Made by a program: the position numbers and the translations under genes. Positions 8,032-60,104 of a stretch of 64,000 nt of DNA are shown here, one piece after another. The DNA is taken from NCBI GenBank assembly GCA_016870615.1, contig VGAZ01000001.1:6481-70480 (forward strand), written 5' to 3'. Each line of letters opens with the position of its first letter. Within the stretch, counting starts at the first letter, position 1. Below the pieces are notes generated by a model. That model had not been told where the DNA came from and made no database searches. It was given only the letters and a program-made list of their open reading frames with translations. This DNA is from Actinomycetota bacterium (GTDB lineage Bacteria > Actinomycetota > Humimicrobiia > Humimicrobiales > Humimicrobiaceae).

Positions 8032-8034
8032 TTT

Positions 8035-28942: not shown

Positions 28943-31162
<2,220 letters not shown>

Positions 31163-42383: not shown

Positions 42384-43037
42384 ATGCAAAACAGTGAAGA
42401 AAAAGACAATTATTTACTTGCCCGACAGAATATGGTTTCTGGCCAGATTATTGCAAGAGGCATTAAAGATGAAAAAGTCATATCTGCAATGCGCAAGGTA
42501 AGGCGCCAGGAATATACTGATGAAGAGATGAGGCAATTTGCCTATGAGGACAGGCCCCTGCCAATCGGCCAGGGACAGACAATATCACAGCCTTATATTG
42601 TTGCATTGATGACAGAGCTTCTTTGCCTTAAAGGGGATGAAAAAGTCCTTGAAATAGGCACAGGTTCCGGTTACCAGACAGCAATAATTGCAGAAATAGC
42701 AGCAGAAGTTTACAGTATTGAAATAATTAAGCCGCTTTATGAGCGTGCAAAAAAAGCCCTTTCAAAATACAATAATATACATTTAAAAAATGATGACGGT
42801 TATAACGGATGGCTCCAGTACAGCCCCTATGACCGCATCATTGCAACCGCTGCCCCCGAGAAAATACCAAAGCCCTTAACAGAGCAGCTAAAAGACGGAG
42901 GCATAATGGTGCTGCCTTGCGGCCCTTCAGGTTTTAGCCAGGTATTATATAAAATAGTTAAAAAAGGCAAAGACTCCATTACAGAGCGTGTATGCGATGT
43001 AGCATTTGTTCCTTTTACTAGAAATATGAGGAAATAG
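42384..43037 (+). CDS. pcm: protein-L-isoaspartate O-methyltransferase
   Basis: It has the SAM motif LEIGTGSGYQTAIIAEI and PCMT-family blocks (TISQPYIVALM, RIIATAAPEKIP). Confidence 0.85.
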   Translation: MQNSEEKDNYLLARQNMVSGQIIARGIKDEKVISAMRKVRRQEYTDEEMRQFAYEDRPLPIGQGQTISQPYIVALMTELLCLKGDEKVLEIGTGSGYQTAIIAEIAAEVYSIEIIKPLYERAKKALSKYNNIHLKNDDGYNGWLQYSPYDRIIATAAPEKIPKPLTEQLKDGGIMVLPCGPSGFSQVLYKIVKKGKDSITERVCDVAFVPFTRNMRK

Positions 43038-45434: not shown

Positions 45435-45440
45435 AAAAAT

Positions 45441-45848
45441 GATGCTATAAGCGAAGTTTCACTTGAAGAGGAATTAAATAGCAGAAGTTCTGCAAGACAA
45501 TACAGCCCATTAGACCTGGAACTGGAAGATATAAGCCAGCTTTTATGGGCAGCGCAGAGTGTAACTGAAAAATCTGCAAGCATCATTAAAGCACCCTTGC
45601 TGCCTGGCCAATACCCCAGGCACCTGCTGGTTTCTTGTGCGGCAGTAATTTACCACAGTGGCGCTCATATCAGAAGAAAGTTGTGTAAAAACATCATCAT
45701 ACACATCAACAAAACAAGAAAAAGGCTTAGACTCTGGGTAAAGGCTGCCAATATCTTTCCAGCCAAAATCCGGCTCCTTCCGGCTTTGCCATTTATATAT
45801 GCACTGCTGCATTACCCACAATCCAGCAATAATCCTGAACTGCCATAA
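45441..45848 (+). pseudogene. truncated or frameshifted nitroreductase / SagB-type dehydrogenase family remnant
   Basis: The in-frame translation ELNSRSSARQYSPLDLELEDISQLLWAAQSVTEKSASIIKAPLLPGQYP matches the N-terminal signature of nitroreductase-fold proteins. There is no in-frame ATG (ATGATG lies in another frame). The similarity then decays and the ORF stops about 135 codons in. Confidence 0.35.
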
Positions 45849-45856
45849 TAATGCCC

Positions 45857-46495
45857 TTATCGTTTTACCGCTTCAACAAATTTTTTAGCAGCAGCTGATG
45901 CATCCGGAGCATATATTTCTATACCATACATGTCAGCAAAATGCTGTGTAACAGGGGCCCCGCCTACTGCAAGGGCAACTTTGTCCCTGAGCCCTGCATC
46001 CTCTATAGCCTTTATATGGGCAGGAATGTTGGCAAGAGTTGTTGTTAAAAGGCCTGAAAATGCAACAATGTCGGGGCTGTTTTCTTTTATTGCAGTTACA
46101 AAAGTTTCATAATCAACATCTATGCCAAGATCTATTACCTTAAAACCCTGCCCCTCTGCCATTGTTATAACAAGGTTTTTGCCTATATCATGAAGGTCGC
46201 CTTTTACAGTGCCTATTAAAAGCGTTCCTTTTTCTGAAATATGTTCTGAGCCTTTAAGAAGCGGCTTTATATAATCCATTGCTGTTTTCATTGCCTTTGC
46301 AGCAAGAAGCATATCAGGCATGTATAGCTCGCCTGAACCGAATTTATCCCCCACCTCTATCATTGCAGCAGAAAGGGCATTGTTTATAATATCATCAAGA
46401 GGCTGGCCTTTATCTATTGCATCCTTAACAAGCCCCTGCATGTCTTTATAATTACCTGCAACTACTGCATCGTAAATTTCCTTCAATTCTGACAT
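45857..46495 (-). CDS. methyltransferase cognate corrinoid protein (B12-binding)
   Basis: An N-terminal B12-binding-2 helical cap is followed by a Rossmann B12 domain with the DxHxxG motif (GDLHDIGKN). Confidence 0.85.
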   Translation of the reverse strand: MSELKEIYDAVVAGNYKDMQGLVKDAIDKGQPLDDIINNALSAAMIEVGDKFGSGELYMPDMLLAAKAMKTAMDYIKPLLKGSEHISEKGTLLIGTVKGDLHDIGKNLVITMAEGQGFKVIDLGIDVDYETFVTAIKENSPDIVAFSGLLTTTLANIPAHIKAIEDAGLRDKVALAVGGAPVTQHFADMYGIEIYAPDASAAAKKFVEAVKR

Positions 46496-46539
46496 TTATC
46501 TCTCCTTTACTTTTATTAATTGCAAAGATTATTAATTTT

Positions 46540-47643
46540 TTAATATGCTCCGTATTTATGTATTGCATTTATATATGCAATTACATTTTCATGCGGTATG
46601 TAATTCACTACTGAGTGGGAAACAGTTGCAACATAACCGTAACCCGGTTTTAAAACTTCCATGTGAGCCTTTACATCTGCATCAACGTCTTCAGGTGTGC
46701 CTTTTGACAATGGAAACTCTATATCAACATTGCCTGAAAGGCAGAGCCTGCTTCCATATCTTTTTTTATACTCAACATAATCAACTCCATAGGGATCCAT
46801 TGGATTAAGGCAGTCAAGGCCTATTTCTATAAGGTCCTCTACTATATCATCTATCCTGCCGTCGGAATGAAACATTATTGGTATTCCTGCATTTAAAGCA
46901 GGCTCAAAAACACGGGCCATTCTTTTTACCCACATTTCCTTAAATATTTTAGGAGGTATAAAAAGACCGGTTTTAAAAGCAACATCATCAGCTGGAAATA
47001 CAAAATCCACACCCGCATCAACAAGTGCTTTAGTTAGGTTTACAAAATGCTCGCATGATACTTCAAGCATATCCTCAACAAGTTCCCTGTCCTCGTATAC
47101 CATCATCATAAAATCATTCATGCCTACAACAAATTCATAAGGAGTTTGCAGCATGCATCCATAAAGCGCAGATACGCCGATTTTTGAATTTCTTTTGTTT
47201 ATAGCATCTTTATATTCCTTAACATACCCTGCGGCACTATTTATGCTATTCTCCGAATCAAGCACCAGTGCGTCAAAATCCTTCCTTGTCTTTACTGACC
47301 TGTCATAAGCAGGTACAAGCTCACCCTTTTCATTATATTTTTTAAAGGGAGTCCAGATGCCCCCGTCAAACATCATTGCGTCCTGGCCCACAATATTGCA
47401 CAAATCTATGAAATCATCAGGAAACATGGGCCTGCCCTGTTCTGCATCCGCGCCTTTGGCAGGATCCCCGCCATATGATAAAGTATTTCCTGCAAACCTG
47501 CCAAGCAGCTTTTCAACATGCTGGTCCTCATAAAGGACTTCAAAATTTGGAACCCTGTCAACAGGCTTTCTCTTAAACGCTGCCAAAAGTCTTTCCTTGT
47601 CCGGTCCGCCTTTAAAGGGTTCTATTGTTTTTGTGTTTATCAT
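46540..47643 (-). CDS. uroporphyrinogen decarboxylase (UroD/MtaA/CmuA) family methyltransferase
   Basis: It is 367 aa with a UroD-fold TIM barrel (N-terminal VDRVP, C-terminal FHSDGRI...LNPMDP). It lies beside a corrinoid protein. Confidence 0.7.
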   Translation of the reverse strand: MINTKTIEPFKGGPDKERLLAAFKRKPVDRVPNFEVLYEDQHVEKLLGRFAGNTLSYGGDPAKGADAEQGRPMFPDDFIDLCNIVGQDAMMFDGGIWTPFKKYNEKGELVPAYDRSVKTRKDFDALVLDSENSINSAAGYVKEYKDAINKRNSKIGVSALYGCMLQTPYEFVVGMNDFMMMVYEDRELVEDMLEVSCEHFVNLTKALVDAGVDFVFPADDVAFKTGLFIPPKIFKEMWVKRMARVFEPALNAGIPIMFHSDGRIDDIVEDLIEIGLDCLNPMDPYGVDYVEYKKRYGSRLCLSGNVDIEFPLSKGTPEDVDADVKAHMEVLKPGYGYVATVSHSVVNYIPHENVIAYINAIHKYGAY

Positions 47644-47802
47644 TTTTACAAACCTCCGTAACTGCCTGTTATAGTATTAGAAAAGATGAGTTAAATAATA
47701 TTTTTATTATATGCAATTTATAGCAGATATGCAATAAATCATGCTAATTTTGCAATAAATTTTTACTGCATACCCGTTTGATAATGAACGCGGCCATAAA
47801 AA

Positions 47803-48123
47803 TCAATCCAGGTGAAACACCTCTTCGAGCATCTCTATTTCAGGGCCCAGCGTATTTTTATCTTCCTTGATAAAGTATTTTTCCATATGCTCCTGCCACT
47901 TTTTATTGAGCTGTGTGCTGCTTATCTTTTCCATGGAAGCGTTAAAGTCATCAGCTTCAAGATATGCAAAAAGAGTGCCGTCCCCGCGGAAATATATTGA
48001 ATAATTTCTAATGCCTGAATCACTTATTACTTTTGCAAACTCGGGCCATATCTGGTCATGTGCCTTTTTATATTCAGCCTTAAGCTCAGGTTTGATTTTA
48101 AAAACAAATGCCGCCCTTGCCAT
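47803..48123 (-). CDS. rhaM: L-rhamnose mutarotase
   Basis: It is collinear with E. coli RhaM as I recall it (AAFVFKIKP, HDQIWPEF, NYSIYF, EEVFHL). Confidence 0.85.
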   Translation of the reverse strand: MARAAFVFKIKPELKAEYKKAHDQIWPEFAKVISDSGIRNYSIYFRGDGTLFAYLEADDFNASMEKISSTQLNKKWQEHMEKYFIKEDKNTLGPEIEMLEEVFHLD

Positions 48124-48182
48124 TAACGCAACCTCCTAAATAGAAATATTTGACTATATTTAAACCGGTAAATGCCCCAACT

Positions 48183-49163
48183 TTATTTGAAAATAAGATC
48201 TGTTATAAGATCCATATTATCTGCAAACCTGTATCCTTTGATGTTTTCGTCGATTATCTTCTCATTTTTAAGAAGCTTTGATGCAAGGTCCTGGAATTTG
48301 TGCGTCAGTTTTACTCCAAGAGCAAGGGATTTTGCCCTGTCATCCCTTGGGGCTATTATATCTATCGCGCACCAGCCATCATAATTTGTTTTATTAAGAT
48401 AATAATAAAATTCTAGTATTTCCCAGAAATTTACAGTCCCGAAAATCATGTCTGGGTCTGCATCCTTGTAATTTTCATTGATATGTATCTGGTAAAGCTT
48501 TCCCCAGTAATCAAGAAGCGCAACAGACTCCCCTATGCCTTCTGCTGCAACAAGAGCATGGCCGATATCAAGGGCGCATCCGACATTATCAAGCCCGACA
48601 TCGTGAATAAACGCCATTGCTTTTCCTGTGTCCCCTATATACTGTTTCTGCCTCGGATCCTTAAGCTTTGCCTCAATGGCAATTTTCATATCCTTTGCAT
48701 ATTCGCCTATTTCCCTTACAGTTTCAACCAAATATTTCCAGCCCTGCACATAATTAACCTGGAAAACATAATCATAACCGTCATGCGCGGGCCACAGAAG
48801 CACACTTTGCGCATTTACCGCTTTTGCAAAATCAATGGCCTCCTTAAACAGCTTTACAGCTTCTTTCCTTATTTTTTGATCATTGGCGCAGAAAGAGCCA
48901 TGCCTCCATTTCCTGTCAGCAAAACATTCTACTGCCACATTTGAGACCTTAAGACCGTAATCGCCTATTTTTTTAACCAGCTTATCTGGGTCATTTGGAA
49001 GAGGAGCTGTTGGATAAAAAGTAAACAAACCGTCAAGCCCCTTTATTTTGGACATAATTTCAAGCTGCTGTTCCACACTCATTTCGTCATAATAACCCCC
49101 GGGAACATATCTTTCAGCATAGGTACCAAGACACCATAGATGCGCATCCACATTCAGTTTCAT
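48183..49163 (-). CDS. sugar phosphate isomerase/epimerase (xylose isomerase-like TIM barrel) family protein
   Basis: It has an AP-endonuclease-2/XI-like TIM barrel pattern (VLLWPAHDGYDY, ALDIGHALVAAEG, YQIHINENY). Confidence 0.6.
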   Translation of the reverse strand: MKLNVDAHLWCLGTYAERYVPGGYYDEMSVEQQLEIMSKIKGLDGLFTFYPTAPLPNDPDKLVKKIGDYGLKVSNVAVECFADRKWRHGSFCANDQKIRKEAVKLFKEAIDFAKAVNAQSVLLWPAHDGYDYVFQVNYVQGWKYLVETVREIGEYAKDMKIAIEAKLKDPRQKQYIGDTGKAMAFIHDVGLDNVGCALDIGHALVAAEGIGESVALLDYWGKLYQIHINENYKDADPDMIFGTVNFWEILEFYYYLNKTNYDGWCAIDIIAPRDDRAKSLALGVKLTHKFQDLASKLLKNEKIIDENIKGYRFADNMDLITDLIFK

Positions 49164-49238
49164 AACTATTGCCTCCAGTCATTAAGTAAATAATAAATCA
49201 ATAATCTCTATGGTATTTTTTACCATAGAGGCGGTAAT

Positions 49239-50423
49239 TTATGCCTTTTTATTTAAACCATCAATTATTTTATTAAGGGCATTCCTGTAATAGGTAAAAT
49301 TATCCCATGTGCAGTCCTGTGACACAAAATGGTCTATATGCGGGATATATCTTCCCTTTTTTAAAAGCTCTGCAGCTATTGAAAGCTCCGCGTCTATTTT
49401 TGCCCTGGTGGAGCCTTCAAAAAGCACGCGCTTATCTATTCCACCCATGAGCTGGAAATCCGGGAAATTTTTCCTTATGCGCAGCATATCATTTCCGGCA
49501 GCCCTTTCAAAAGGATACATTCCTGTAACGCCTGTCTCAACAATTAAGGGGATAAGGTCCTCAACATAGCCGTCGCTGTCTGTAAGGATTATGTCAATAC
49601 CTGCCTCTTTTGCAAAATTGACAATTTTTTTATAGCGGGGCCTTAAAAATTCCCTGAAATGAGCAGGCGATATAAGGGAGCCTCCCTTGCCTGCCATATC
49701 CTCCCATATAAGTATGCAGTCCACTTTAACATCATTTACTATTGCACCGTAATACTCCAGAAGGAAATTACAAAATGTTTCGCATATATCATGAATGAGT
49801 TCAGGGTCATCATACATTACCATCATATAATCAGTAAGCCCCATTATCTGCCTTGGAAAGCCTAAAAAACCGCCGTTTGTTCCTCCAAGGCGTATGGGAA
49901 AATCCCTGTCCTTTAGCCTTGCGGCAAGGTTATCCCAGTCTGGCGGAAGCCGTTTCTTTATTGTATTGCTGCTGTAATGCTGTTTATACTCCTGCCAGCT
50001 TTTTTTGTCTTTTACCGGGTGGGCAAGCTCCATTGGAAGTGATGTTATATGTATGTCGTTTTTTAATGTGACGCCGTATTCGTCTTTATATATTATATGG
50101 GTATCAGTTTTGTCGATTTCTTCTATTTTAAACATGGGGCTGTAGTCCACCGGAAATTTTGTAAGATACTGGTCAAGCCCAAACACCGGCTGCACATTGA
50201 CATCGCCTGCTTTTTCCATATCAGCATAAATATTCTTATTTGCCATTATTGCTATGCCGTCAGATATTTTATCAGGCACAGGCTCTATCATTTTAAGGCC
50301 CTGGTCAAACCACCGCCTGATGGTGCCTGCCCAGTAACCAAATTCCACCATGGGGACCTGGACACCGCTATAGTCACCATCTGCCATGCGCATTACAGAT
50401 AAAAATTTTTCTCTTGAGTTCAT
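49239..50423 (-). CDS. UroD/MtaA-family methyltransferase (paralog 2)
   Basis: It is a paralog of 55354..56628 (EFGYWAGT, CILIWEDMAGKGGSLISP, ILTDSDG). The start is trimmed to MNSREKF by analogy with the paralog's MDTREKF; the listed ORF extends to 50483. Confidence 0.65.
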   Translation of the reverse strand: MNSREKFLSVMRMADGDYSGVQVPMVEFGYWAGTIRRWFDQGLKMIEPVPDKISDGIAIMANKNIYADMEKAGDVNVQPVFGLDQYLTKFPVDYSPMFKIEEIDKTDTHIIYKDEYGVTLKNDIHITSLPMELAHPVKDKKSWQEYKQHYSSNTIKKRLPPDWDNLAARLKDRDFPIRLGGTNGGFLGFPRQIMGLTDYMMVMYDDPELIHDICETFCNFLLEYYGAIVNDVKVDCILIWEDMAGKGGSLISPAHFREFLRPRYKKIVNFAKEAGIDIILTDSDGYVEDLIPLIVETGVTGMYPFERAAGNDMLRIRKNFPDFQLMGGIDKRVLFEGSTRAKIDAELSIAAELLKKGRYIPHIDHFVSQDCTWDNFTYYRNALNKIIDGLNKKA

Positions 50424-50445
50424 AATCATTATTAATCTAATTATA

Positions 50446-51426
50446 TCAATACAGTTGCAAATGCCTTTTGTTCCTGAATGCATCTATTGCTATAACAAGA
50501 ACCAGCAAAGCGCCTTTTACAACCATTCTCAGGAATACAGGAACATTTAGAAGCACCATTCCGTTTGTAATTGTCTGGATAATTATAAGGGCTATAAAAA
50601 CTCCAAGATAGTTACCCCTGCCGCCACCGACAACCACTCCGCCAAGAACTACAATAGTAAGAACCTCAAGCTCTGCACCCGTGCCATACTCTGGCCTTCC
50701 TGAGCCAAGCTGAGAGATAAGCAATAGCCCTGCTACAGAACAGAAAAAACCGCTTATAACATATGATAATATTTTTATACGGTCAACAGGTATACCGGCA
50801 AGCCTGGCAAGTGTTTCGTTGCCTCCAATGGTAAAAAGATCCCTTCCGAACCTTGTGAACTTTAATATGAGAGTTAAAGCTACAAATGCAATGATTATAT
50901 AAAGAGTAGTTATTGGAAATACATTACCAAGATAAATCCTTCCAAAATTCTGCACAAATACATTATATACCCTGGGATTTAAATCAGCCCAGAAATAGCA
51001 AACTCCCCTGAAAATAGCAAGTGTGCCCAGCGTTGTAATAATAGGGTTTATTCCCACTTTTGTAATTATAAGCCCGTTAATTAAGCCTACAGTGCATCCT
51101 ATTGCTATAGCTATAAGAAAGACCCAGGGAGTAGCTACCTCTATTCCTTTCATTAACAGTACTGAGCTCACTATGCCTGCAAGACCTGCAGTTGAACCAA
51201 TTGCTAGATCAAAACCTCCACCAATCATTACAACAGTCACTCCTGCTGCTAGAATCCCAAATACTGCAAAATTATTATAAATTCCTTTAATGTTCTGTAT
51301 TGTAAGGAATTTATCGCTTGTAAGGGAAAATAGCAGCATCATAACAATATAAATTCCTATCAGTGTAGGTGTTGGTGTTCTTAAAAAACTTAAAAACCCA
51401 GAATATTTTTTCACAGCTTTTTCCAT
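50446..51426 (-). CDS. sugar ABC transporter permease (CUT2/RbsC-like)
   Basis: It has about 9 TM helices and a BPD_transp_2 pattern. Confidence 0.8.
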   Translation of the reverse strand: MEKAVKKYSGFLSFLRTPTPTLIGIYIVMMLLFSLTSDKFLTIQNIKGIYNNFAVFGILAAGVTVVMIGGGFDLAIGSTAGLAGIVSSVLLMKGIEVATPWVFLIAIAIGCTVGLINGLIITKVGINPIITTLGTLAIFRGVCYFWADLNPRVYNVFVQNFGRIYLGNVFPITTLYIIIAFVALTLILKFTRFGRDLFTIGGNETLARLAGIPVDRIKILSYVISGFFCSVAGLLLISQLGSGRPEYGTGAELEVLTIVVLGGVVVGGGRGNYLGVFIALIIIQTITNGMVLLNVPVFLRMVVKGALLVLVIAIDAFRNKRHLQLY

Positions 51427-52410
51427 TTATGTTCTCCTCCTGGCAACTGCCTGCCTAATTTCATATGTTGAAACTACAAGTATCAGGACAGAACCCTGTA
51501 CCATTTGAATGTAAAAATAGTAAATATTCATTATTGTAAGGAAATTATAAAGCACACTTAAAATAAACACTCCTGCAAGTGTTCCAAGTATCTGTCCCCT
51601 GCCTCCTCCCAGGGCAGTTCCGCCCAGTATAATAGCTGATATAATCACAAGTTCCTGGCCCTGTCCGTGCTGCGGCATCCCGACCGCAGATAAAGACGTA
51701 AGCACCAGTCCGCCAAGAGCAGCCGCTGCTCCACAAAATAAAAAGCCGATAAATTTCACTTTTTTAACATTTATGCCTGAAAGAAACGAAGCGAGCGGAT
51801 TTGCCCCAATAGCATATATCCTCCTGCCCCATTTTGAATGATTCATAATAATATAAGTTATGATAAATACTGCTACCAAAAGAACTATTGGAAACGGGAT
51901 AACTTTAAATACAAAACCCCTGCCAATATAATCTATGACCGTATTTAGGGCAAGTTTGGATTCCCCGTTTGTAATAGTGTAACCTATGCCTCTCCATATA
52001 AACATTGTACCTATGGTAGCAATAATAGAATTTACCCCTACAACTGTTACAAGCATTCCATTAAATGCACCCATTGCAAATCCGCCGGCAAGCGCAATTA
52101 TCACTACAAGCCAGCCCGGCAAACCCTTTTCAAGCAGTAAAGCAGTAAGGCACGCTGTAAGGCCGATATTTCCGCCAATGGAAAAATCTATTTCTCCGGA
52201 AACCATTACCATTGTAAGTATTGCAGCAATTATCCCGACAAATGAAAGATTATTAATCATTGGAATAAGATTCAATTTAGAAAAGAAAAATGGCCTTCCC
52301 ACATATGAAAATAATGCAAACATTACAACAAGAATAAGAAAAAGTATTGCTGTATTATTTAATCTTACTTTCTTTTTTTGTAAAACATCAACAGTCTTAT
52401 CATCTACCAT
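51427..52410 (-). CDS. sugar ABC transporter permease (CUT2/RbsC-like), second copy
   Basis: It is homologous to the adjacent permease, and its start abuts the stop of the upstream gene. Confidence 0.8.
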   Translation of the reverse strand: MVDDKTVDVLQKKKVRLNNTAILFLILVVMFALFSYVGRPFFFSKLNLIPMINNLSFVGIIAAILTMVMVSGEIDFSIGGNIGLTACLTALLLEKGLPGWLVVIIALAGGFAMGAFNGMLVTVVGVNSIIATIGTMFIWRGIGYTITNGESKLALNTVIDYIGRGFVFKVIPFPIVLLVAVFIITYIIMNHSKWGRRIYAIGANPLASFLSGINVKKVKFIGFLFCGAAAALGGLVLTSLSAVGMPQHGQGQELVIISAIILGGTALGGGRGQILGTLAGVFILSVLYNFLTIMNIYYFYIQMVQGSVLILVVSTYEIRQAVARRRT

Positions 52411-52427
52411 AAACCCTCCCTATATTA

Positions 52428-53921
52428 TTACAGGCATGCTGAACGAAGCAGACCTTCTTCTGAGGCATCGCATATTTTATATTCTTCCGTAAACCTTCCC
52501 TTGCTCATAACTATTATTCTATCAGCAATAGAAAGAATTTCCGGAAGCTCTGAGCTTATCATGATTATTGAAGAGCCTTTTTCACATAAATCCTGCATCA
52601 ATTTATATATTTCAATTTTTGCGCCTACATCAACTCCTCTTGTGGGCTCATTTAAAATTATTATTTGCGAACCACTTTCAAGCCATTTGGCAAGAACGAC
52701 TTTCTGCTGGTTTCCCCCTGAAAGGCTGTTTACCTCCTGTTCAACTGAAGGTGTTCTTATCCCTATTTCATCTACCCAATTACCAGCTTTCCTGCGTTCC
52801 TGGTTCCTGGCTATCAGAAAACTTTTTCCAAGTTCTTTAATGTTTGCAAGGGTTATGTTTTCTTTAACGCCCATCATAAGCGCAAGGCCCTCAATTTTCC
52901 TGTCAAGGGGCACCAGTCCAATTTTTGCATCCCTTGCCATGCCCGGACTTTTAATTCTAAGTTTTTTACCGTTAACTATTATCTCTCCATTTTTTATCTT
53001 ATTTGCACCAAAAAGGGCTTTAACAAGTGAACTCCTGCCTGAACCAAGCAGGCCAAATATTCCAAGTATCTCACCTTTCCTTAGCTTAAAACTTATATTG
53101 TCAAACCCTTCAGCACCAAGATTATTAACTTCCATGACCACGCCACCAATGGGTACGTGCCTTTTGGGATACATGTCTTTTATGTCCCTTCCAACCATCA
53201 TTTCCACAAGTTTATTGGAATCAGATTCTTTTGTTTTAAGTGTTCCGACTTTTTTCCCGTCCCTAAGCACTGTTACCCTATCAGTTATTTCAAAAATTTC
53301 TTTCAGCCTGTGTGAAATATATATTATTGCAACACCTTTTGTTTTTAAGGCCTGTATTATCTTAAAAAGGGATTGTGTTTCCTCTTCTGAAAGAGCTGCA
53401 GTGGGTTCATCCATGACAAGTATTTTTGCTTCCTGTGAAATTGCTTTGGCAATTTCCACAATCTGTTTTTCAGAAACAGTCAAATCTCCAATTATTGCAT
53501 TGGGATCAAGTTTAACATTCATAACAGCAAGCAGCTCCTCAGCTTTTTTATTCATGCCTTTCCAGTCTATGATCTTTAATGGTCCTTTTACCAGCTGTTC
53601 ACCAATAAAAATATTTTCAGCCACTGTAAGATTATTTATAGTATTTAACTCCTGGTATATTACCCTTATGCCTGAAGACATAGCTTCAGCAGGACCCTTT
53701 ATTTCAAATTTCTGGCCATCAATAAAAATATCTCCAGAGTCTTTTATGTAATTGCCCGCAAGTATTTTTATAAGGGTTGACTTGCCTGCACCATTTTCCC
53801 CAAGTATCCCCAGTACTTCACCTTTATACAAATCAATTGAGACATTGTCTAATGCTACAACTCCAGGAAAAGTTTTCGTAATATTTTCCATTCGCAAAAC
53901 TATTCCATTACTGTCTGACAC
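52428..53921 (-). CDS. sugar ABC transporter ATP-binding protein, duplicated ATPase (RbsA/MglA-like)
   Basis: It has two NBDs: Walker A GENGAGKST, signature LSVSEKQ, and a second degenerate Walker A GLLGSGRS with LSGGNQQK. Confidence 0.9.
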   Translation of the reverse strand: MSDSNGIVLRMENITKTFPGVVALDNVSIDLYKGEVLGILGENGAGKSTLIKILAGNYIKDSGDIFIDGQKFEIKGPAEAMSSGIRVIYQELNTINNLTVAENIFIGEQLVKGPLKIIDWKGMNKKAEELLAVMNVKLDPNAIIGDLTVSEKQIVEIAKAISQEAKILVMDEPTAALSEEETQSLFKIIQALKTKGVAIIYISHRLKEIFEITDRVTVLRDGKKVGTLKTKESDSNKLVEMMVGRDIKDMYPKRHVPIGGVVMEVNNLGAEGFDNISFKLRKGEILGIFGLLGSGRSSLVKALFGANKIKNGEIIVNGKKLRIKSPGMARDAKIGLVPLDRKIEGLALMMGVKENITLANIKELGKSFLIARNQERRKAGNWVDEIGIRTPSVEQEVNSLSGGNQQKVVLAKWLESGSQIIILNEPTRGVDVGAKIEIYKLMQDLCEKGSSIIMISSELPEILSIADRIIVMSKGRFTEEYKICDASEEGLLRSACL

Positions 53922-54046
53922 TTTATCACCACCCGTATAGCAAAATTGAGGAGACTGGCTAAAACAGCCTCCCCAATTTTTTGATAATTTATGACATTGT
54001 TAATATCATTTCTGGCATATCATGTTTTATTATACTAATATACTAT

Positions 54047-55138
54047 TTATTCAGGATACCATTCATCAATATTATCTTTATTTATTACAACATTTTCAAC
54101 ATAAAGGAATGGCGGAACAATTTGGCCCATCATAAGTGCAACTGCTGCAGGTACAAGATACTCCCCATATCTTTCAGGGAAAAACGCAACTGAACCGTCT
54201 GTAAGTCCATCACGGATTTGCTGCTTGCCAACATCATCACAGCCCATTGTAACTATAAACCATTTTTCAGGATCCCATCTGCCTGCAGTCTGTATGGCTG
54301 CAATACAACCGCTCATGGTCTGCTCATTAATTGATGTCATTGCAACATATTGTGCATCAGGTATTGTTGAAAGTATGTCTGTCATAGCTTTGTTGGCCTG
54401 CTCTGCTTCGCCGGCTCCGCCGTCTGCCCTGTAAGTAATAGGATCAATTTTTTCTGCACCATATTTGTCAACAAAAGCCTGGTAAAAACCTTCTGATCTC
54501 AGCATAAGGATATCGCCACCGGCAGGAAATTGCATAAGCACTATTGCATCAAGCATATCAATTCCGCCCATTGCTTCTACTGCCGCTACTGCATATTCTC
54601 CACCAAGATAAGAAACATAGAAATTGTTAACACCCATAAATGGTGCGCCAGGTGTTGGTACGTCAACAGCTATAATCGGTATTCCTGCCTGGCCGAATTT
54701 TGTAGCTATAATACTGTTTACTTTGGCATCAAACTGGAAGTTAATGAGAACATCAGGACTTTTTGCAAGCATGATATCTGCATTTTTAAGCCCGATTGTT
54801 GCATCATACTGGTTGTCAGCATAATATAGGTCTCCAGGTGCGCCACCTGCTAAAGCCCACTGTTTCTGGACATCTGACCAAACTGATTCGCAGAAAGGTA
54901 TTCCACCCATTATGTTTGTAAAGGCAAGTGTTTTGCCTGCTGCAGGTGCATCAGGATATGCTTCACCTTTTTTAGCTACTTCCCTGAGCATTTCGTAATA
55001 ATCATATGCAGCCTCTCCAATAACTTCAGCTGCTTTGGTTTCTTCGGCTTTTTGTGCCTGTACACAACCTGAAAAAGAAATTGTTGCCGCCAGTACTACA
55101 ACTAGAATTGCTGCCAATAATACTACAGTTTTTTTCAT
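54047..55138 (-). CDS. ABC transporter substrate-binding lipoprotein, periplasmic sugar-binding (type I PBP) family
   Basis: A signal peptide with lipobox FSGC is followed by a PBP type I fold. Confidence 0.75.
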   Translation of the reverse strand: MKKTVVLLAAILVVVLAATISFSGCVQAQKAEETKAAEVIGEAAYDYYEMLREVAKKGEAYPDAPAAGKTLAFTNIMGGIPFCESVWSDVQKQWALAGGAPGDLYYADNQYDATIGLKNADIMLAKSPDVLINFQFDAKVNSIIATKFGQAGIPIIAVDVPTPGAPFMGVNNFYVSYLGGEYAVAAVEAMGGIDMLDAIVLMQFPAGGDILMLRSEGFYQAFVDKYGAEKIDPITYRADGGAGEAEQANKAMTDILSTIPDAQYVAMTSINEQTMSGCIAAIQTAGRWDPEKWFIVTMGCDDVGKQQIRDGLTDGSVAFFPERYGEYLVPAAVALMMGQIVPPFLYVENVVINKDNIDEWYPE

Positions 55139-55353
55139 TTTTCCTCCTTTTTATTAATTGGTTTTTATAAAATGATTTTTGCCTGTTATTTTCACATTCT
55201 CCTTTCAATTAAGTTTTTAACATAAAAATAGAATAGCTTTTGACCATAAGAGATTTCAGAATGAAATATAATTTAGAAAAACGATTTTCTAAAAATACCA
55301 TACAATATTTATTTTGTCAATATTTTGTCATTTAGTGTCATTTAAATAATTTT

Positions 55354-56628
55354 TTATATACCATCAATCATACTGTTTAATTGTTCCCTGTAATACTTAA
55401 AATTGCCCCAGGGTACTTCCGGGGGAATCAAATGGTCACCGAAAGGTATGTATCCCCCCTGCTTTAAAAGCCATTGGACCGGCTCAAGTATTTCATCAAT
55501 TCTTTCTTTGCCTTTGGCAATTTCAAGCTTTGGAATGCCACCCATAATAAAAAGGCCGGGGTAATCTTTTCTAAGCTTTACAACATCCATGCCTGCGCTT
55601 ACTTCCATAGGGTAAAGCCCTGTTACCCCTGCATCTATAAATATTGGAACAAGTTCATTGCAGTCTCCATCTGTATCAACAAGAAAAATATCAATTTTTT
55701 TACTCTTTAAAAAATTCGATATTTTTTTGTAGTACGGCGCCATAAACTCCCTGATTAGAACAGGGGAAACCATAGAACCTTTACCGGATGATATATCCTC
55801 CCAAATATTGCATAAATCTATATCAGTATAAACAAGTATTTCTTCCCAGAGAGCAATCCATATGTCGGTTAGCCGGTCAAGAATATCTTTTATAAGGTCG
55901 GGATGGTCATAATAAAAAAGAAATAAATTTTCATAACCTATAAGATGAGTTAAAGTGCCAAATATGCCATTGGGATAACCCCCTACTGCAAGAGGATAAT
56001 CCCTTCCCTTATATTCCTTAACTAGTTCATCCCAGTTTGCCGGAAGCCTGTCTTTTATATTATCAAGTCGCATTCTCTGGCTTTTAATCTCCTCCCATGA
56101 CTTCCAGTCTTTTATCGGCCAGTCAAGCCCTGCCGGAAGCACCTGTTCTGATTTTGAAAACCTCCTGGTGCATCCGTCAAGGTCTATATAGTCAATATAT
56201 TTTTCATCTTCAAAAATAATTTTGGTTTCAAATTGCGGATAAAAAAGCTGTTCTGCGCAAACTATTATCTGCACTTCATCCATTTTAAAATAGTTTTTAA
56301 CGTCTTTATCAACTGCAAAACCCTGGGTGGGCCAGTAAAGCCCCCCTGCGCATACAGGCATGCCATCTGGAAGCTTTACTCCATCGGGCTGGTTAAACAT
56401 TTTTTCAAAAAGGTTTTTGTCTTTTTTTAAAAAATGCCTCCACACTGCAGTATAAAGTGAAGCAGTGCTATTAACTATATTTACAGGCACAACAGGATAA
56501 TTATTTAACGGCAGTCCCTCGCAGTACCAGTTATTCAGCGTTTTACCCCAATACCCAAATTCCCATTTTACTGAACTTGCTTTCTGCTTAAAGTGCGCGC
56601 ATTCTATAAATTTCTCTCTTGTGTCCAT
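55354..56628 (-). CDS. UroD/MtaA-family methyltransferase (paralog 3)
   Basis: It is 424 aa and similar to 49239..50423 along its whole length. Confidence 0.7.
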   Translation of the reverse strand: MDTREKFIECAHFKQKASSVKWEFGYWGKTLNNWYCEGLPLNNYPVVPVNIVNSTASLYTAVWRHFLKKDKNLFEKMFNQPDGVKLPDGMPVCAGGLYWPTQGFAVDKDVKNYFKMDEVQIIVCAEQLFYPQFETKIIFEDEKYIDYIDLDGCTRRFSKSEQVLPAGLDWPIKDWKSWEEIKSQRMRLDNIKDRLPANWDELVKEYKGRDYPLAVGGYPNGIFGTLTHLIGYENLFLFYYDHPDLIKDILDRLTDIWIALWEEILVYTDIDLCNIWEDISSGKGSMVSPVLIREFMAPYYKKISNFLKSKKIDIFLVDTDGDCNELVPIFIDAGVTGLYPMEVSAGMDVVKLRKDYPGLFIMGGIPKLEIAKGKERIDEILEPVQWLLKQGGYIPFGDHLIPPEVPWGNFKYYREQLNSMIDGI

Positions 56629-56662
56629 AGATCACCTGTTGCAAAGATTTTTAAATTTTATT

Positions 56663-58070
56663 TTAAAGAAGTCCTTTTTTCCTGTAATACTCTGTGGCTT
56701 CTTTTAATATACTGTCAATTTCTTTGTCCTGCTGGGGAGTTAGAGGAACAGGCTTATGTGTCGCCACTATTTCCTCATATTTTTCTTTTGCCTTATCAAG
56801 AGCTGTTTTTTTGCCGGTGTTAATCCATTCCTGATAAGATGATTTATCAAACATTTTCGGCATATAATCTTCTGTTTTCCACATGGTCCTTGTCTGTTTG
56901 GAATTCAGGAAAGTTCCGCTGCTTGCCACTTCCTTAATTACGTCAAGTCCTATTGTTTCATCATTTACAGTAAATCCTTCAACAATGCGGCCTATTGTCT
57001 TTGCTATATCATCATCAAGTATTGCAAGAACCGGATTGTATGCAAGCTCTGCAGTAACCCCGCCGTGAAGGACTATAAGATTGGCGCCTGAAAGTGCAGA
57101 TGCCGTTGCAAGCGGAAGCTTTTCGGCCCCAAGCTGGTAGTCAATTATTTTTGCATTGGAAAAAGCTGAACCGGTATTGTTTACCGGTATATTATAGTGA
57201 TAGTGCCATATCTGGTTATATGCCATCTGGTGAAGCGCAATAGCAGCAGTGCCGAAGTTTAAATCGCCAGTCTGCATATTCATTGCAGACACAAAATTAT
57301 TTGCAATAATTCCGCATCCCGGTTTTATGCATTGCAGAAGCACAATAATTGCAAGAAGCTCTGCGTTGTGGGAAACAGATGCGCCTGCAATCGTAATCGG
57401 ATGAGAGCCGCCCATTATTGAGCCGGAGGCTATATATATTGGAAATCCTGCATCAAGATAATGAAAAGCGGCATTGCACGGATCCTCTGCAAGTGACAGC
57501 GGCGCCGCACCTTCAACACAGCCCATTATCTGGGCGCCCACAGCCTGCGCAATTTTAGTTTCCCATATAAAAGAGTCTGTTGGCTGAGCTCCCCTTGAGG
57601 CAGCTCATTACGGGTGGAACTCCCTCCAGTTCGAAATAAGGGGTATATGAAGGAAAGACATTTACTGAATCAAGATAGTCCGACACCATAACACCAATAT
57701 TATTCTGCTCAAGGGTTGGCATTGTAACAATTCCTGTATCAATATCAACATGCCTTGCGCCTGCCGAGTTCATGAAATACATTGTATTGCCGCCAAGCCT
57801 TATGCTTTTTTCGCTATCTCTGGCCTTAAGATAAAAACTTGAAGGTGTTTTTGAAATTGCCCACTGCACCAGGCTCGGGGGTATTTTTGCTGTCATTGAT
57901 GCGTAATCTACAATGCAGCCATGCTCTTCAAGTAGCTTTAAAGCCTTTTGTGATTCATACTTAAAACCTACTTCTTCCAGAACATTCAGCGATGCAGTGT
58001 GTATCTGTTCTATCTGTGAACTGGAAAGCACCTTTACAGGCTCAAAATTTAATTTATATCCTTTTTGCAT
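56663..58070 (-). pseudogene. MttB-superfamily (trimethylamine/glycine betaine-type) methyltransferase, interrupted by a frameshift
   Basis: The N-terminal 171 aa (LSSSQIEQIHTASLNVLEEVGFKYES...) and the C-terminal 292 aa are collinear with MttB/MtgB proteins but lie in different frames. The upstream ORF stops at TAA (57555). The downstream frame is open from 57604, giving a 50-nt overlap. Confidence 0.7.
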
Positions 58071-58178
58071 AATTATCTGTTCCTTTCACTTATCTTAAAG
58101 ACACTGAAGTTCATAAAAAACTTTTGAAATCAAGATTTTTACCTTTATAAAAACAAAGAGAAAAATCCCATGTTTAAA

Positions 58179-58823
58179 TTAATCAATGCCCATAAATCTT
58201 CTGCAGATTTTTACACCTTCAGGGGCTGTTGAGCCATAACCGTCTGCTCCAATGGAGTCGGCAAATTCCTGGTTTATGGGGCTTCCCCCAACAATTATCT
58301 TTACCCTGTCTCTTATACCTGCATCTTTTAAACCTTCGATTACTTTTTTCTGTTCCATAGCAGTTGTTGTAAGAAGAGCCGACATTGCAAGTATGTCTGC
58401 ATTTTCCTCCTTTACAGCTTTTAAAAAATCTTCACCTTTTACATTTATGCCAAGATCAATAACTTTAAAGCCGGCAGCATACAAAAGCGTTGCAACCATG
58501 CCCTTGCCTATTGAATGAATATCTCCAAACACTGTACCTATAACAACTTTACCCACAGAAGACTCACTGCCTCCCTGTTTTTGGATCGCCTCATTTATGA
58601 CTGGAAATGCTTTTTTTAAAACTTCAGAAGCGCAAACAAGATCAGGCAGGAACAGGTCGCCTTTGCCAAACCGCTCACCCACATCCCTGATTGCCTCAGT
58701 TAAAGCATTTGCAGCCTTAAGAGGATCTGTTCCGGATTCAATAGCATCTTTTGCAGTCTCCTCTGCATTGTCTATATCAAAATTAAGTACAATGTCTTTT
58801 AACTGCTGTACAAAATCTGCCAT
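58179..58823 (-). CDS. methyltransferase cognate corrinoid protein (B12-binding), second copy
   Basis: It has a B12-binding-2 cap and the DxHxxG motif (GDIHSIGKG). Confidence 0.85.
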   Translation of the reverse strand: MADFVQQLKDIVLNFDIDNAEETAKDAIESGTDPLKAANALTEAIRDVGERFGKGDLFLPDLVCASEVLKKAFPVINEAIQKQGGSESSVGKVVIGTVFGDIHSIGKGMVATLLYAAGFKVIDLGINVKGEDFLKAVKEENADILAMSALLTTTAMEQKKVIEGLKDAGIRDRVKIIVGGSPINQEFADSIGADGYGSTAPEGVKICRRFMGID

Positions 58824-58903
58824 CGCGGGCCTCCTTTTTTGATTGTTTTTTATTATTTAATTTCAATTGATACTTTTTATAAATATATTTTCCGTTTTAA
58901 TCC

Positions 58904-59938
58904 TTATTTCGGGACAGCTGTGGATCCCCTGACTATAATTTCCGTTTCAAGAACAATATTCTTATTTTCCACCTTTTTACCTTCAATTATATCAAGCAAC
59001 AGATTTGCTGCTGTTGCCCCCATTATTTTTTTGGGCTGCTTTACAGTAGTTAGTGGAGGGTCTGAAAATTCACATATTATCTCATTATTAAAACCCATAA
59101 CTGATACATCCCCCGGAACCTTTAAGCCAAATTCCTTAAATGCATGAATTGCGCCTATTGCAAGAAAATCAGCAAGATTAAGGTATGCAGTTGCAATCTT
59201 TTTTTCCTCAACTCTTCTTTTAATAAGTTTGTATGTGGCCTTGAGCTCGTCAAGGCGCATAAGATCGTCTATTATTACAATATCCGGGTCATATTCAATA
59301 TTATTTTTTGCAAGGCCTGCACAATAACCTTCATACCTTCTTCTTATTGTTGTCTGGTTTTTAAAAGGAAAAGTTATAAAGCCTATTTTTCTATGGCCAA
59401 GGTCATAAAGGTACTGGAAGGCATTCTGCATGGCGGCCTTGTTGTCTATAAGCACAGATGGTATTTCGCTGTTCTTAAGCTCCCTGTCAAGAACTACAAC
59501 CGGTATATTTGAAAGATGGGCTTTTTTAATATGATCATATGAATCATAACCGCAAAAAAACATAAGACCGTCAATTGTCTGGTCTATCATAGCATTCATC
59601 TGCCGCTCTTCCTCATAAATGTCATAGAATGTACATCCGAGTATAAGGGTATAGTTTCTGGCACGTGCGGCCTCTTCAATGCCACGCAGCACCTGGGCAA
59701 AAAATGGCTGTGCTATATCTGGAAGGATTACCCCAAGAGTGCGTGTACTTTTTGTGCGCAGCCCCCTTGCAATAATATTAGGCCTGTAATTAAGTTTTTT
59801 TATTGCCTTTTTTACAGCGTCAGCCGTTTTATCTGAAACAAACTTGGTTTGGTTTATAACATGAGAGACTGTTGATATTACAACGCCGGACTCTTTGGCT
59901 ATATCTTTTATGGATGGTTTTTTAACAGATTTATTCAT
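58904..59938 (-). CDS. LacI family transcriptional regulator
   Basis: An N-terminal HTH (IKDIAKESGVVISTVSHVIN) is followed by a periplasmic-binding-like effector domain. Confidence 0.85.
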   Translation of the reverse strand: MNKSVKKPSIKDIAKESGVVISTVSHVINQTKFVSDKTADAVKKAIKKLNYRPNIIARGLRTKSTRTLGVILPDIAQPFFAQVLRGIEEAARARNYTLILGCTFYDIYEEERQMNAMIDQTIDGLMFFCGYDSYDHIKKAHLSNIPVVVLDRELKNSEIPSVLIDNKAAMQNAFQYLYDLGHRKIGFITFPFKNQTTIRRRYEGYCAGLAKNNIEYDPDIVIIDDLMRLDELKATYKLIKRRVEEKKIATAYLNLADFLAIGAIHAFKEFGLKVPGDVSVMGFNNEIICEFSDPPLTTVKQPKKIMGATAANLLLDIIEGKKVENKNIVLETEIIVRGSTAVPK

Positions 59939-60104
59939 GTGTTAATATATAACAGAAAAACGTTTTTCTGTCAATATATGTTAATTAAATAATCCTCCAG
60001 TATATTTTTTATAATAGTGCGGATATTATGCTATTATTAAATACAATAATTAATAAAACCAGCAGTATAGTTGCCTTTTAAAAAAACTAAAGGTTTATTA
60101 AAAA

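Follow-up and report, generated by a model that had tools for sequence, protein, structure and literature searches.

A LacI-controlled cluster of corrinoid methyltransferase and sugar-utilization genes in an uncultured Humimicrobiaceae bacterium: a candidate for anaerobic demethylation of a methylated, rhamnose-like sugar

The stretch of DNA analysed here, hereafter called the window, comprises 64,000 nt of contig VGAZ01000001.1 (assembly GCA_016870615.1) from a member of the Actinomycetota (Humimicrobiales; Humimicrobiaceae), and all coordinates refer to it. Its predicted proteins were scanned with Pfam and NCBIfam. The window carries an array of 13 genes, all on the minus strand (45857–59938), with gaps of 0–215 bp between neighbours. 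The array combines genes of corrinoid-dependent methyl transfer with genes for the uptake and conversion of a sugar (table 1). The listing of open reading frames (ORFs) and the Pfam matches agree with an earlier note on this DNA in gene content, order, strand and coordinates. We propose that the locus is repressed by LacI and serves to import a methylated, rhamnose-like monosaccharide and to remove its methyl group in a corrinoid-dependent reaction, a reading to which we give an even chance.

The closest relatives of the cluster proteins are encoded in metagenome-assembled genomes (MAGs) labelled Actinomycetota, Humimicrobiales or Humimicrobiaceae, and one of these loci belongs to Candidatus Humimicrobium oleiphilum UBA1414. 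Several freshwater metagenome samples contain identical proteins, and a related MAG takes its name from a 1200-m deep cast. Purifying selection is strong, with dN/dS values of 0.03–0.09 in every cluster gene compared with orthologues. None of the methyltransferases, corrinoid proteins, regulator, binding protein or isomerase of the cluster reaches an NCBIfam equivalog cut-off, so that these proteins represent unnamed subfamilies. At Rfam gathering thresholds, there is no cobalamin riboswitch or other known RNA element in the cluster; the only Rfam matches elsewhere in the window are two tRNAs and an RNase P RNA of the bacterial type, which shows the host to be a bacterium.

Table 1. Genes and sequence elements of the cluster, from the upstream to the downstream end, followed by the non-coding elements. 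Lengths are in amino acids (aa).
Feature	Position	Strand	Domains or remarks
LacI-family repressor, 344 aa	58904–59938	-	PF00356 (LacI helix-turn-helix, HTH) and Peripla_BP_1/3
Corrinoid protein CP1, 214 aa, MtgC-like	58179–58823	-	PF02607 (B12-binding_2) and PF02310 (B12-binding)
MttB-family methyltransferase gene, non-pyrrolysine, disrupted	56663–58070	-	PF06253
UroD424, long UroD-like TIM-barrel protein, 424 aa	55354–56628	-	PF01208, C-terminal half only
CUT2 sugar-binding protein (periplasmic/lipoprotein), 363 aa	54047–55138	-	Peripla_BP_4
Fused double ABC ATPase, 497 aa	52428–53921	-	Two ABC_tran stretches
CUT2 permease 1	51427–52410	-	BPD_transp_2
CUT2 permease 2	50446–51426	-	BPD_transp_2
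UroD394, long UroD-like TIM-barrel protein, 394 aa	49239–50423	-	PF01208
Xylose-isomerase-like TIM-barrel enzyme, 326 aa	48183–49163	-	AP_endonuc_2
RhaM, L-rhamnose-mutarotase-family protein, 106 aa	47803–48123	-	PF05336, 101 bits
UroD367, MtaA/CmuA-like UroD-family protein	46540–47643	-	PF01208, 104 bits
Corrinoid protein CP2, 212 aa	45857–46495	-	PF02607 and PF02310
FGGY kinase remnant, rhamnulokinase-like	45618–45830	-	Similarity to the 500-aa kinase of relatives
Predicted operator O1, AGAAAAACGTTTTTCT	59954–59969		Core of the 20-bp perfect palindrome ACAGAAAAACGTTTTTCTGT
Predicted operator O2, AGAAAATCGTTTTTCT (coding strand)	55275–55290		Upstream of the transporter genes
Promoter-like region of UroD367–CP2	47706–47758	-	Three ATTGCA repeats and a perfect TATAAT
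Hairpin, perfect 10-bp stem, CTCTATGGTA-AAAAA-TACCATAGAG	49206–49230	-	Between the UroD394 and TIM-barrel genes; no clear T-tail

The cluster encodes two corrinoid proteins that combine both cobalamin-binding domains with the DxHxxG motif typical of base-off/His-on binding (GDIHSIGK in CP1 and GDLHDIGK in CP2). They are 41% identical to each other. The best NCBIfam match of CP1 is the glycine-betaine corrinoid protein MtgC, at 186 bits with a cut-off of 310.

The gene adjoining CP1 belongs to the MttB family, as the earlier note had it, but it is broken in the window. It is represented by two ORFs in different frames, 57555–58070 (171 aa) and 56663–57541 (292 aa), with a TAA stop and PF06253 scores of 74 and 178 bits. 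Comparison with near-identical contigs from other samples reveals a 41-bp gap at about 57600/57601 (in the interval 57555–57660), where the sequence is locally polymorphic, and it is this deletion that splits the gene. In four of the contigs from other samples that encode an identical CP1 (L009–L012; related loci are cited by L numbers), MttB is intact (1449 bp, 482 aa). Their translations contain no internal stop and no in-frame TAG, and together with PF06253 and the adjoining CP1 this places the protein in the non-pyrrolysine MttB superfamily, with scores below the equivalog cut-offs. Pyrrolysine read-through of the split gene was considered and is ruled out by the TAA stop, the change of frame and the deletion. 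The window copy is either a strain-level pseudogene or an assembly artefact.

The three remaining candidate methyltransferases are TIM-barrel proteins of the uroporphyrinogen decarboxylase (UroD) family. UroD394 is the most conserved marker of the system: its orthologues in 43 MAG loci are 59–88% identical, its dN/dS is 0.06–0.09, and its large, unnamed family has 328 representatives at 50% identity (E below 1e-30). Its start most likely lies at 50423, as in the orthologues, rather than at the first ATG (50483); the longer, 414-aa reading of the ORF has no exact match on record. UroD424 is a full-length paralogue of UroD394, 34% identical and with a common N-terminal extension; its orthologues usually follow directly after the permease genes. 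Both resemble UroD367 in the C-terminal half only, at about 29% identity.

An AlphaFold (AF2) model of UroD394 was obtained with good scores (pLDDT 89, pTM 0.88). The best solved fold match is the methanogen methyltransferase MtaA (4ay7); next come uroporphyrinogen decarboxylases and, at a greater distance, cobalamin-independent methionine synthase. By sequence, the nearest solved relatives of UroD367 are MtaA (4ay7, E 3e-12) and the chloromethane methyltransferase CdmB (9rui, E 2e-6), and in the related loci its gene is almost always placed directly upstream of CP2. Identity with the methylcobamide:coenzyme M methyltransferases MtaA/MtbA was rejected, as UroD367 scores 79 bits with the mtaA_cmuA model (cut-off 235) and does not keep the zinc cysteines. 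The earlier note took the three paralogues for something other than genuine uroporphyrinogen decarboxylases, and in this it was right. UroD367 scores 24.8 bits with the HemE model TIGR01464 (cut-off 303), UroD394 and UroD424 do not match it, and the protein scans of the window found no haem-pathway genes near the cluster.

Three residues, D242, D284 and H365 in UroD394 numbering, are invariant across the UroD394 family and all three window paralogues, and D284 sits in the motif in which MtaA carries its HxC zinc ligands. Speculatively, the harder Asp/Asp/His site might serve to bind or protonate the oxygen of the sugar methoxy group where MtaA binds a thiolate. Zinc-free enzymes of the UroD fold that transfer methyl groups from a substrate to a corrinoid (MT1) do exist, namely CdmB and the Moorella O-demethylase (PMC13222342). 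UroD394 and UroD424 are regarded as candidate MT1 enzymes, and UroD367 as a candidate methyl-corrinoid:acceptor methyltransferase (MT2) or a further MT1.

The sugar part of the cluster begins with a complete CUT2 transporter, composed of a Peripla_BP_4 binding protein, a fused double ATPase and two BPD_transp_2 permeases. CUT2 transporters carry monosaccharides. Solved ribose-type binding proteins are only distantly related to the one encoded here (E about 4e-7), and the ATPase resembles RbsA, XylG and AraG at about 540–550 bits, under the equivalog cut-offs. The protein labelled a sugar-phosphate isomerase in the earlier note is better described as a xylose-isomerase-like TIM barrel. Among solved structures it is most similar to 3ktc (E 3e-45), which is named ‘xylose isomerase’ but uncharacterised. 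Its best NCBIfam matches are the actinobacterial xylose isomerase and the Gram-positive RhaI (70 bits, cut-off 531), both with scores far under the cut-offs. It is probably an aldose–ketose isomerase or epimerase. RhaM matches the Pfam mutarotase family and misses the YiiL equivalog (75 versus 99.6 bits).

A kinase has apparently been lost from this lineage. Downstream of CP2, before a convergent radical-SAM gene (44439–45434), there remain 71 codons that are 69% identical to residues 306–376 of the FGGY kinase of relatives. Contigs of the same population share this layout, with the radical-SAM gene about 420 bp behind CP2 (L001), which suggests that the kinase deletion is fixed in the lineage. 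In the interval 45435–45856, the start region of the kinase (‘MAV’) is joined to about 71 internal codons, after which the similarity ends. The intact kinase of relatives scores 345 bits with the rhamnulokinase model TIGR02627 (cut-off 528) versus 123 bits for fuculokinase.

The locus itself does not hold a full L-rhamnose pathway (RhaA or RhaI, rhamnulokinase and aldolase), and no rhamnulose-1-phosphate-type aldolase is encoded in the window. The earlier note's suggestion of rhamnose-type catabolism nevertheless gains from the related loci, where the rhamnulokinase-like kinase and a class II aldolase, weakly similar to MtnB, complete a route of this type. A canonical RhaA is present at 33502–34779 on the minus strand (634 bits, cut-off 572), 11 kb from the cluster. 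It is a lone gene between a RadC-like gene and a tRNA-Met, with no kinase or aldolase adjoining, and the related loci contain no RhaA homologue. Judging from the types of mutarotase, kinase, aldolase and isomerase, a rhamnose-like 6-deoxyhexose is the most likely carbon skeleton. O-methyl-rhamnose has been documented in arabinogalactan proteins of charophytes, bryophytes and ferns and in cyanobacterial and bacterial exopolysaccharides; it would plausibly be present in a lake, the setting of this bacterium.

The regulator has an HTH and an effector domain. It is closest to PurR, RbsR and CcpA, at about 235 bits and under every equivalog cut-off. A LacI-type palindrome with a central CG, AGAAAAnCGnTTTTCT, occurs at exactly two sites in the 64 kb, compared with none in 100 shuffled sequences. 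The first site, O1, lies upstream of lacI, between a TTGACA-like -35 box and an A/T-rich -10 box, and its position and architecture are repeated in front of lacI in L021, L024, L046 and L009. The second, O2, is immediately downstream of the promoter-like sequence TTGACA-17-TATTTT (55292–55320), and the architecture TTGACA...TGGTATTTTTA-AGAAAATCGTTTTTCT is kept in L019, L021, L024, L026, L046, L051 and L059. The operator is found at the same places in seven other species-level loci. Behind O1, lacI is followed by CP1, mttB and UroD424 at distances of 80, 108 and 34 bp. The unit behind O2 consists of the genes for the binding protein, the ATPase, the permeases, UroD394, the isomerase and the mutarotase, with UroD394 placed 22 bp after the second permease gene and 75 bp before the isomerase gene. 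Since both promoters carry the same operator, the methyltransferase unit and the sugar unit appear to share one LacI repressor, acting at these predicted sites.

UroD367 and CP2 have an upstream region of their own (159 bp) that lacks the LacI operator. L020 retains the promoter-like element within it, and L025 and L035 have a related inverted repeat, ATGCA...ATTGCAT, upstream of UroD367. This region may be the site of a second regulator, as the LacI operator is missing from it. Three transcription units are thus probable for the cluster, with two sharing one regulon. The single array of the earlier note is therefore probably not a single transcription unit, given at least two operator promoters and the promoter-like region of UroD367–CP2, but the sugar genes are not set apart from the methyltransferase genes: a UroD gene lies inside the sugar unit and the operator is shared. 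A generic scan for promoters and terminators gave counts not above those in shuffled sequences (55 versus 46.5 and 16 versus 12.1) and is uninformative on the question of a single operon. The hairpin between the UroD394 and isomerase genes may be an element of mRNA processing or stability, or a weak attenuator.

The gene neighbourhood was compared across 65 loci, taking one genome per species and labelling the ORFs with the window proteins. There are 43 loci with a UroD394 orthologue, from uncultured Actinomycetota/Humimicrobiia, Spirochaetota and one Atribacteria MAG. Many of them are short contigs, so the following partner counts are lower bounds. The isomerase, RhaM or the FGGY kinase accompanies UroD394 in 35 of the 43 loci. 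The individual partners are RhaM (31), the TIM-barrel isomerase (27), the CUT2 ATPase (21), UroD367 (15), an intact FGGY kinase behind or inside the cluster (11) and UroD424 (9); a corrinoid protein or MttB was detected by tblastn in 19.

The transporter, UroD367 + CP2 and MttB + corrinoid protein recur as modules in shuffled orders. Three types of order are observed: that of the window, lacI-CP1-mttB-(UroD424)-ABC-UroD394-TIM-RhaM-UroD367-CP2; a second, ABC-UroD424-CP1-mttB-UroD367-CP2-TIM-RhaM-UroD394; and a third, ABC-UroD424-isochorismatase-FGGY-TIM-RhaM-UroD394-...-UroD367-CP2-...-aldolase. A Spirochaetaceae locus (L054) contains the ABC ATPase, both permeases, UroD424, CP1, MttB, RhaM, the TIM-barrel isomerase, UroD394, UroD367 and the FGGY kinase; the binding protein was not detected there. 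Further recurrent neighbours include a class II aldolase, an isochorismatase-like hydrolase, an Amidohydro_2 protein and a class III aminotransferase. A compact operon, FAA-hydrolase / UroD390 / UroD371 / corrinoid protein / class II aldolase, is found on three contigs, two from ENA metagenomes (one of them a biogas fermenter) and one from an NCBI MAG. With two UroD-like proteins and one corrinoid protein, in the order methyltransferase–methyltransferase–corrinoid protein, it resembles an MT1–MT2–corrinoid triad.

Such shuffled yet persistent linkage across phyla speaks for a functional unit. The earlier note had argued that the corrinoid and sugar parts belong together, and the rearranged recurrence of the gene set in Actinomycetota, Spirochaetota and an Atribacteria MAG, with a shared operator, upholds this. 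Functional unity and LacI control are well supported by these comparisons.

More distant homologues were also noted. L039 has, just ahead of its UroD394 orthologue, another full-length UroD/MtaA-like gene (5264–8890; PF01208, 177 bits) that adjoins genes for a distant corrinoid protein and a DUF1638–GGDEF fusion protein, all within this interval. Genes distantly similar to UroD394, UroD424 and UroD367 (30–36% identity) occur in a Chloroflexia MAG (L078, about 8800–16400) and a Clostridia MAG (L072, about 4600–16200). Judged by eye, their neighbours are RhaM-like, Gfo/Idh/MocA-type oxidoreductase, enolase-superfamily dehydratase and sulfatase genes in L078, and GH4-like and DUF4038-like glycosidase, family-5 binding protein and RuBisCO-like protein genes in L072. 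By the same inspection by eye, with no profile scan, no corrinoid protein was seen nearby in either.

From these data we propose the following route. A methylated sugar would be taken up by the CUT2 transporter, and the sugar or a derivative of it would relieve LacI repression at the two operator-bearing promoters. UroD394 and/or UroD424 would bind the sugar and bring its methoxy group to the Co(I) corrinoid of CP2 (and CP1). The corrinoid would then accept the methyl group as in the aryl-O-demethylase, methanol and chloromethane systems. UroD367 would pass the methyl group to an acceptor, or might be a further substrate-specific methyltransferase. The likely acceptor would be tetrahydrofolate, leading to the Wood–Ljungdahl pathway or to methionine synthesis, and the MttB–CP1 module would contribute another methyl-donor specificity. 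The demethylated sugar would be handled by the RhaM-type mutarotase, then by the xylose-isomerase-like isomerase and, in relatives, by the rhamnulokinase-like kinase and the class II aldolase, to give dihydroxyacetone phosphate and lactaldehyde. Some members of the UBA1414 class have been reported to encode the Wood–Ljungdahl pathway, a possible methyl sink (PMC7325909).

Of the earlier note's proposal of import and demethylation of a methylated sugar, functional unity and LacI control stand, and it is the chemistry that we infer: the transfer of the methyl group by the UroD paralogues, the identity of the sugar and the acceptor. The most likely substrate is an O-methylated, rhamnose-type 6-deoxyhexose such as 3-O-methyl-L-rhamnose.

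Several observations weigh against corrinoid-dependent demethylation. A RamA-type activator and a pterin-type MT2, which the earlier note would look for just outside the window, were not found within it: there is no pterin-binding methyl-corrinoid:tetrahydrofolate methyltransferase (PF00809) among the window ORFs scanned and no RamA/RACo-type activase among those of at least 150 aa, and Wood–Ljungdahl genes are likewise missing from the window. UroD367 does not have the two zinc cysteines of MtaA; an MT2 may be encoded elsewhere in the genome. No RamA or pterin-binding MT2 was found among the sampled unlabelled neighbours in related loci, many neighbours being outside that scan. As for MT1, MttB is frameshifted here, and the UroD proteins have the right fold. 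Sequence searches with the long UroD family against solved structures gave no more than marginal matches, to UroD and MtaA. The profile of the UroD394/UroD424 family, searched in the same way, reaches MtaA and UroD at E about 1e-3 (MtaA 3e-3) and does not match CdmB; this is so remote that the label ‘methyltransferase’ depends on fold and neighbourhood only. At the zinc motif of MtaA, UroD394 and UroD424 read DSDG and DTDG, and the zinc ligands HxC...C (HIC...C) align with HSD...Y in UroD367. With MttB broken and the kinase gone, the locus may not be fully functional in this genome.

The related loci add to these objections. A corrinoid protein or MttB was not detected in the fetched sequence of 24 of the 43 loci, and the most constant neighbours of UroD394 are sugar enzymes. 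Some clusters look complete and have no corrinoid protein (L024, L026, L042, L087 and L088). L087, for instance, has the transporter, aldolase, kinase, two TIM barrels, RhaM, LacI, an esterase and three UroD-like genes, and in L088, from a Spirochaete, UroD383 and UroD398 adjoin each other. Unless the genomes of such loci encode a corrinoid protein at another site, the long UroD proteins need none. It is mainly because of these loci that we do not put our confidence above an even chance. A further point is chemical. As a leaving group in attack by Co(I), an alkoxide is far inferior to a phenolate or chloride, so activation would be needed. We speculate that it might be achieved by the conserved Asp/Asp/His site or after isomerization to the ketose. 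In the ketose form, a 3-O-methyl group would be placed beside the carbonyl, as an enediol methyl ether resembling an aryl ether, and this could explain why an unusual isomerase travels with UroD394.

Among the alternatives, the one that survives best, which we consider unlikely, is that UroD394 and UroD424 are B12-independent sugar-modifying enzymes of a rhamnose-type pathway (for example decarboxylase, dehydratase or epimerase-like), acting on a decorated deoxyhexose. UroD367–CP2 and MttB–CP1 would then serve for another methylated substance, a small one like methanol or a quaternary amine, whose release from the same natural substrate, or co-occurrence with it, would explain the co-regulation. 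Such a division of labour would fit the closer association of UroD394 with the isomerase, RhaM and the FGGY kinase than with a corrinoid protein, as well as the five clusters named above and the carbohydrate loci L072 and L078 (neighbours judged by eye). In profile searches the family is equally close to UroD and MtaA, and characterized non-pyrrolysine MttB proteins are not known to act on anything but quaternary amines. This alternative is harder to reconcile with the compact operon of UroD390, UroD371, corrinoid protein and aldolase, with the insertion of corrinoid/MttB modules at three positions in the sugar cluster in two phyla, and with a Chloroflexota locus (L074) that pairs distant UroD homologues with a corrinoid protein. 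MtaA is moreover the best fold match, and the cluster has no transporter for a second substrate.

The substrate could also be a sugar-linked methylamine (an N-methylated or quaternary-ammonium derivative or glycoside), with MttB–CP1 as the primary demethylase and the UroD paralogues as MT2 or auxiliary proteins. The genes for MttB and the MtgC-like CP1 do stand directly behind lacI under O1, MttB lies within the cluster in 7–10 related loci, including that of a Spirochaete, and a class III aminotransferase adjoins UroD394 in five loci, a hint of amino-sugar variants. We nevertheless find this decidedly improbable, as MttB is missing from most related loci in which UroD394, isomerase and mutarotase persist, and as the window copy is frameshifted in a cluster otherwise intact and subject to purifying selection. 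Natural quaternary-amine sugars of any abundance are not known.

A methylthio-sugar, demethylated by UroD-like proteins acting as MtsA/MtpA-type methylthiol methyltransferases, seems very improbable. Thiolates leave far more readily than alkoxides, and the class II aldolase of relatives is weakly similar to MtnB, but the zinc–thiolate site of the thiol-handling MtaA/MtsA enzymes is not conserved and the types of kinase, mutarotase and isomerase point to rhamnose-like sugars rather than to methylthioribose salvage. UroD-family MtaA homologues in the widespread bacterial ‘mlp’ clusters have been proposed to serve methyl-sulfur or methyl-selenide metabolism (PMC10418091), which would favour such a substrate. 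Chance adjacency of a betaine-type methyltransferase operon, a sugar operon and a second methyltransferase pair could account for the promoter-like regions ahead of the transporter genes and of UroD367 and for the independent decay of MttB and the kinase, but it is disfavoured, and hardly to be expected, in view of linkage that recurs across phyla in shuffled order, an identical operator before the methyltransferase unit and the sugar unit, and the tight placement of UroD394 between the second permease gene (22 bp) and the isomerase gene (75 bp).

Some other features of the window were noted. Two genes resembling PolX/PHP-domain DNA polymerases bracket the region, at 40313–42190 (minus strand) and 60105–61829 (plus strand). 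Between the downstream one and the cluster lie a DUF763 gene (43045–44157) and a protein-isoaspartate methyltransferase gene (42384–43037), both of which recur beside the cluster in L021, L024, L027, L046 and L051. A 1028-aa fusion of FAD_binding_4, 4Fe-4S dicluster and two CCG domains (36092–39178, minus strand) looks like an oxidoreductase of the GlcD/GlcF or D-lactate dehydrogenase type. A 729-aa protein with two haem-peroxidase stretches (28943–31132, minus strand) is probably a KatG-type catalase-peroxidase, in what is apparently an anaerobe of anoxic water. The G+C content is 0.28–0.31 at 12000–16000 and about 0.38 elsewhere, and this stretch may be a horizontally acquired island. It carries an HTH and SocA/Panacea antitoxin-like gene (13302–14060). 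ORFs without a Pfam match are found at 14270–15076, inside it, and at 16642–18066, just beyond.

Methylated sugars are constituents of algal, plant, cyanobacterial and bacterial glycans; they include 6-O-methyl-galactose, 2-O-methyl-fucose, 2-O-methyl-xylose, 3-O-methyl-rhamnose and 4-O-methyl-glucuronate. The locus provides a concrete set of candidates for work on them: a binding protein, a repressor with its operator, three UroD-like proteins and two corrinoid proteins. Somewhat more tentatively than for the proposed function itself, we suggest that this would be the first anaerobic, cobamide-dependent removal of a sugar methyl ether, with UroD394/UroD424 as a new MT1 family acting on alkyl (carbohydrate) and not aryl methyl ethers and UroD367 as an MT2 free of zinc cysteines. 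Uncultured Humimicrobiia, Spirochaetota and Atribacterota of anoxic waters, sediments and digesters would then have a hitherto unrecognized source of one-carbon (C1) units in methylated glycan sugars. If this is true, the range of cobamide-dependent methyltransferases would include carbohydrate ethers besides aryl ethers, methanol, methylamines, methylthiols and methyl halides, and new enzyme families would be defined, that of UroD394 among them. Glycan degradation would be tied to C1 and acetogenic metabolism in abundant uncultured anaerobes, and a B12 dependency would be added to carbohydrate turnover in anoxic habitats.

The cluster has features of several known systems. L-Rhamnose operons typically encode RhaM, RhaA or RhaI, RhaB, RhaD, a CUT2 transporter of the RhaSTPQ type and a LacI or other regulator. 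The present locus shares with them the RhaM-family mutarotase, the CUT2 transporter, the LacI regulator with its CG-centred operator and, in relatives, the kinase and aldolase. It differs by a short xylose-isomerase-like TIM barrel in place of RhaA, by the loss of the kinase, and by the three UroD-like, two corrinoid protein and MttB genes interleaved with the sugar genes.

The only described enzymatic removal of a methyl ether from a monosaccharide before central catabolism is that of 6-O-methyl-D-galactose by the P450–ferredoxin–reductase system of aerobic marine bacteria, which is likewise encoded inside a sugar-utilization locus (PMC12316285, citing Reisky et al. 2018; PMC10033563; PMC9400963). 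The P450 route needs O2, yields formaldehyde and involves no corrinoid or UroD-like proteins, whereas the present locus encodes no P450 and belongs to lineages of anoxic water and sediment. How 6-O-methyl-galactose is demethylated anaerobically, in the porphyran system of the gut, had not been elucidated as of 2025 (PMC12316285). The earlier note knew of no described corrinoid route for methylated sugars, and our literature search, whose coverage left out most subscription journals and which is thus no proof of novelty, found none either.

The Type 1 mlp clusters of Kountz and Balskus (PMC10418091) are widespread in bacteria and, as here, encode homologues of the soluble corrinoid methyltransferases of methanogens; they are described as linked to methyl-sulfur or methyl-selenide metabolism and not to sugar transport or catabolism. 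The MttB-type quaternary-amine systems (MtgB/MtgC for glycine betaine, MtcB for carnitine and MtyB for gamma-butyrobetaine; PMC8604678, PMC13080624) resemble the cluster in having a PF06253 protein (482 aa and without an in-frame TAG in the intact copies of this population) beside an MtgC-like corrinoid protein. Here, in contrast, the scores are below cut-off, the genes are set in a sugar locus with a LacI operator, an MtgA-type (PF00809) partner is missing and the gene is disrupted.

In the MtaABC/MtbA systems of methanogens (methanol- and methylamine:coenzyme M methyl transfer), MtaA is the protein that UroD394 matches best by structure and UroD367 by sequence, and UroD367 is likewise encoded beside a corrinoid protein; the differences are the altered zinc site and the low model score (79 versus 235 bits). 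The host is moreover a bacterium, for which no coenzyme M metabolism is known.

The closest parallels are the three-component corrinoid systems for O-demethylation and dehalogenation: MtvABC of Moorella, Odm/Vdm of Acetobacterium, MtoABCD of Methermicoccus and CdmBCA for chloromethane (PMC13222342, PMC8630106). They too have a UroD-fold TIM-barrel MT1 of about 390–430 aa with N-terminal insertions, a corrinoid protein of about 210 aa with DxHxxG, and several paralogous MT1 genes per organism, and zinc is dispensable in CdmB and the Moorella enzyme. Their substrates, aryl methyl ethers or methyl halides, have good leaving groups, and their MT2 is of a pterin-binding kind (MeTr/MtrH-type) that is absent here; the present locus is furthermore associated with a monosaccharide transporter and sugar enzymes, and CdmB is not matched by the UroD394/UroD424 profile. 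By analogy, the system described here appears most like these O-demethylase/dehalogenase systems, with resemblance also to the MttB/MtgC systems, and it is the best candidate so far for the demethylation of methylated sugars by anaerobes.

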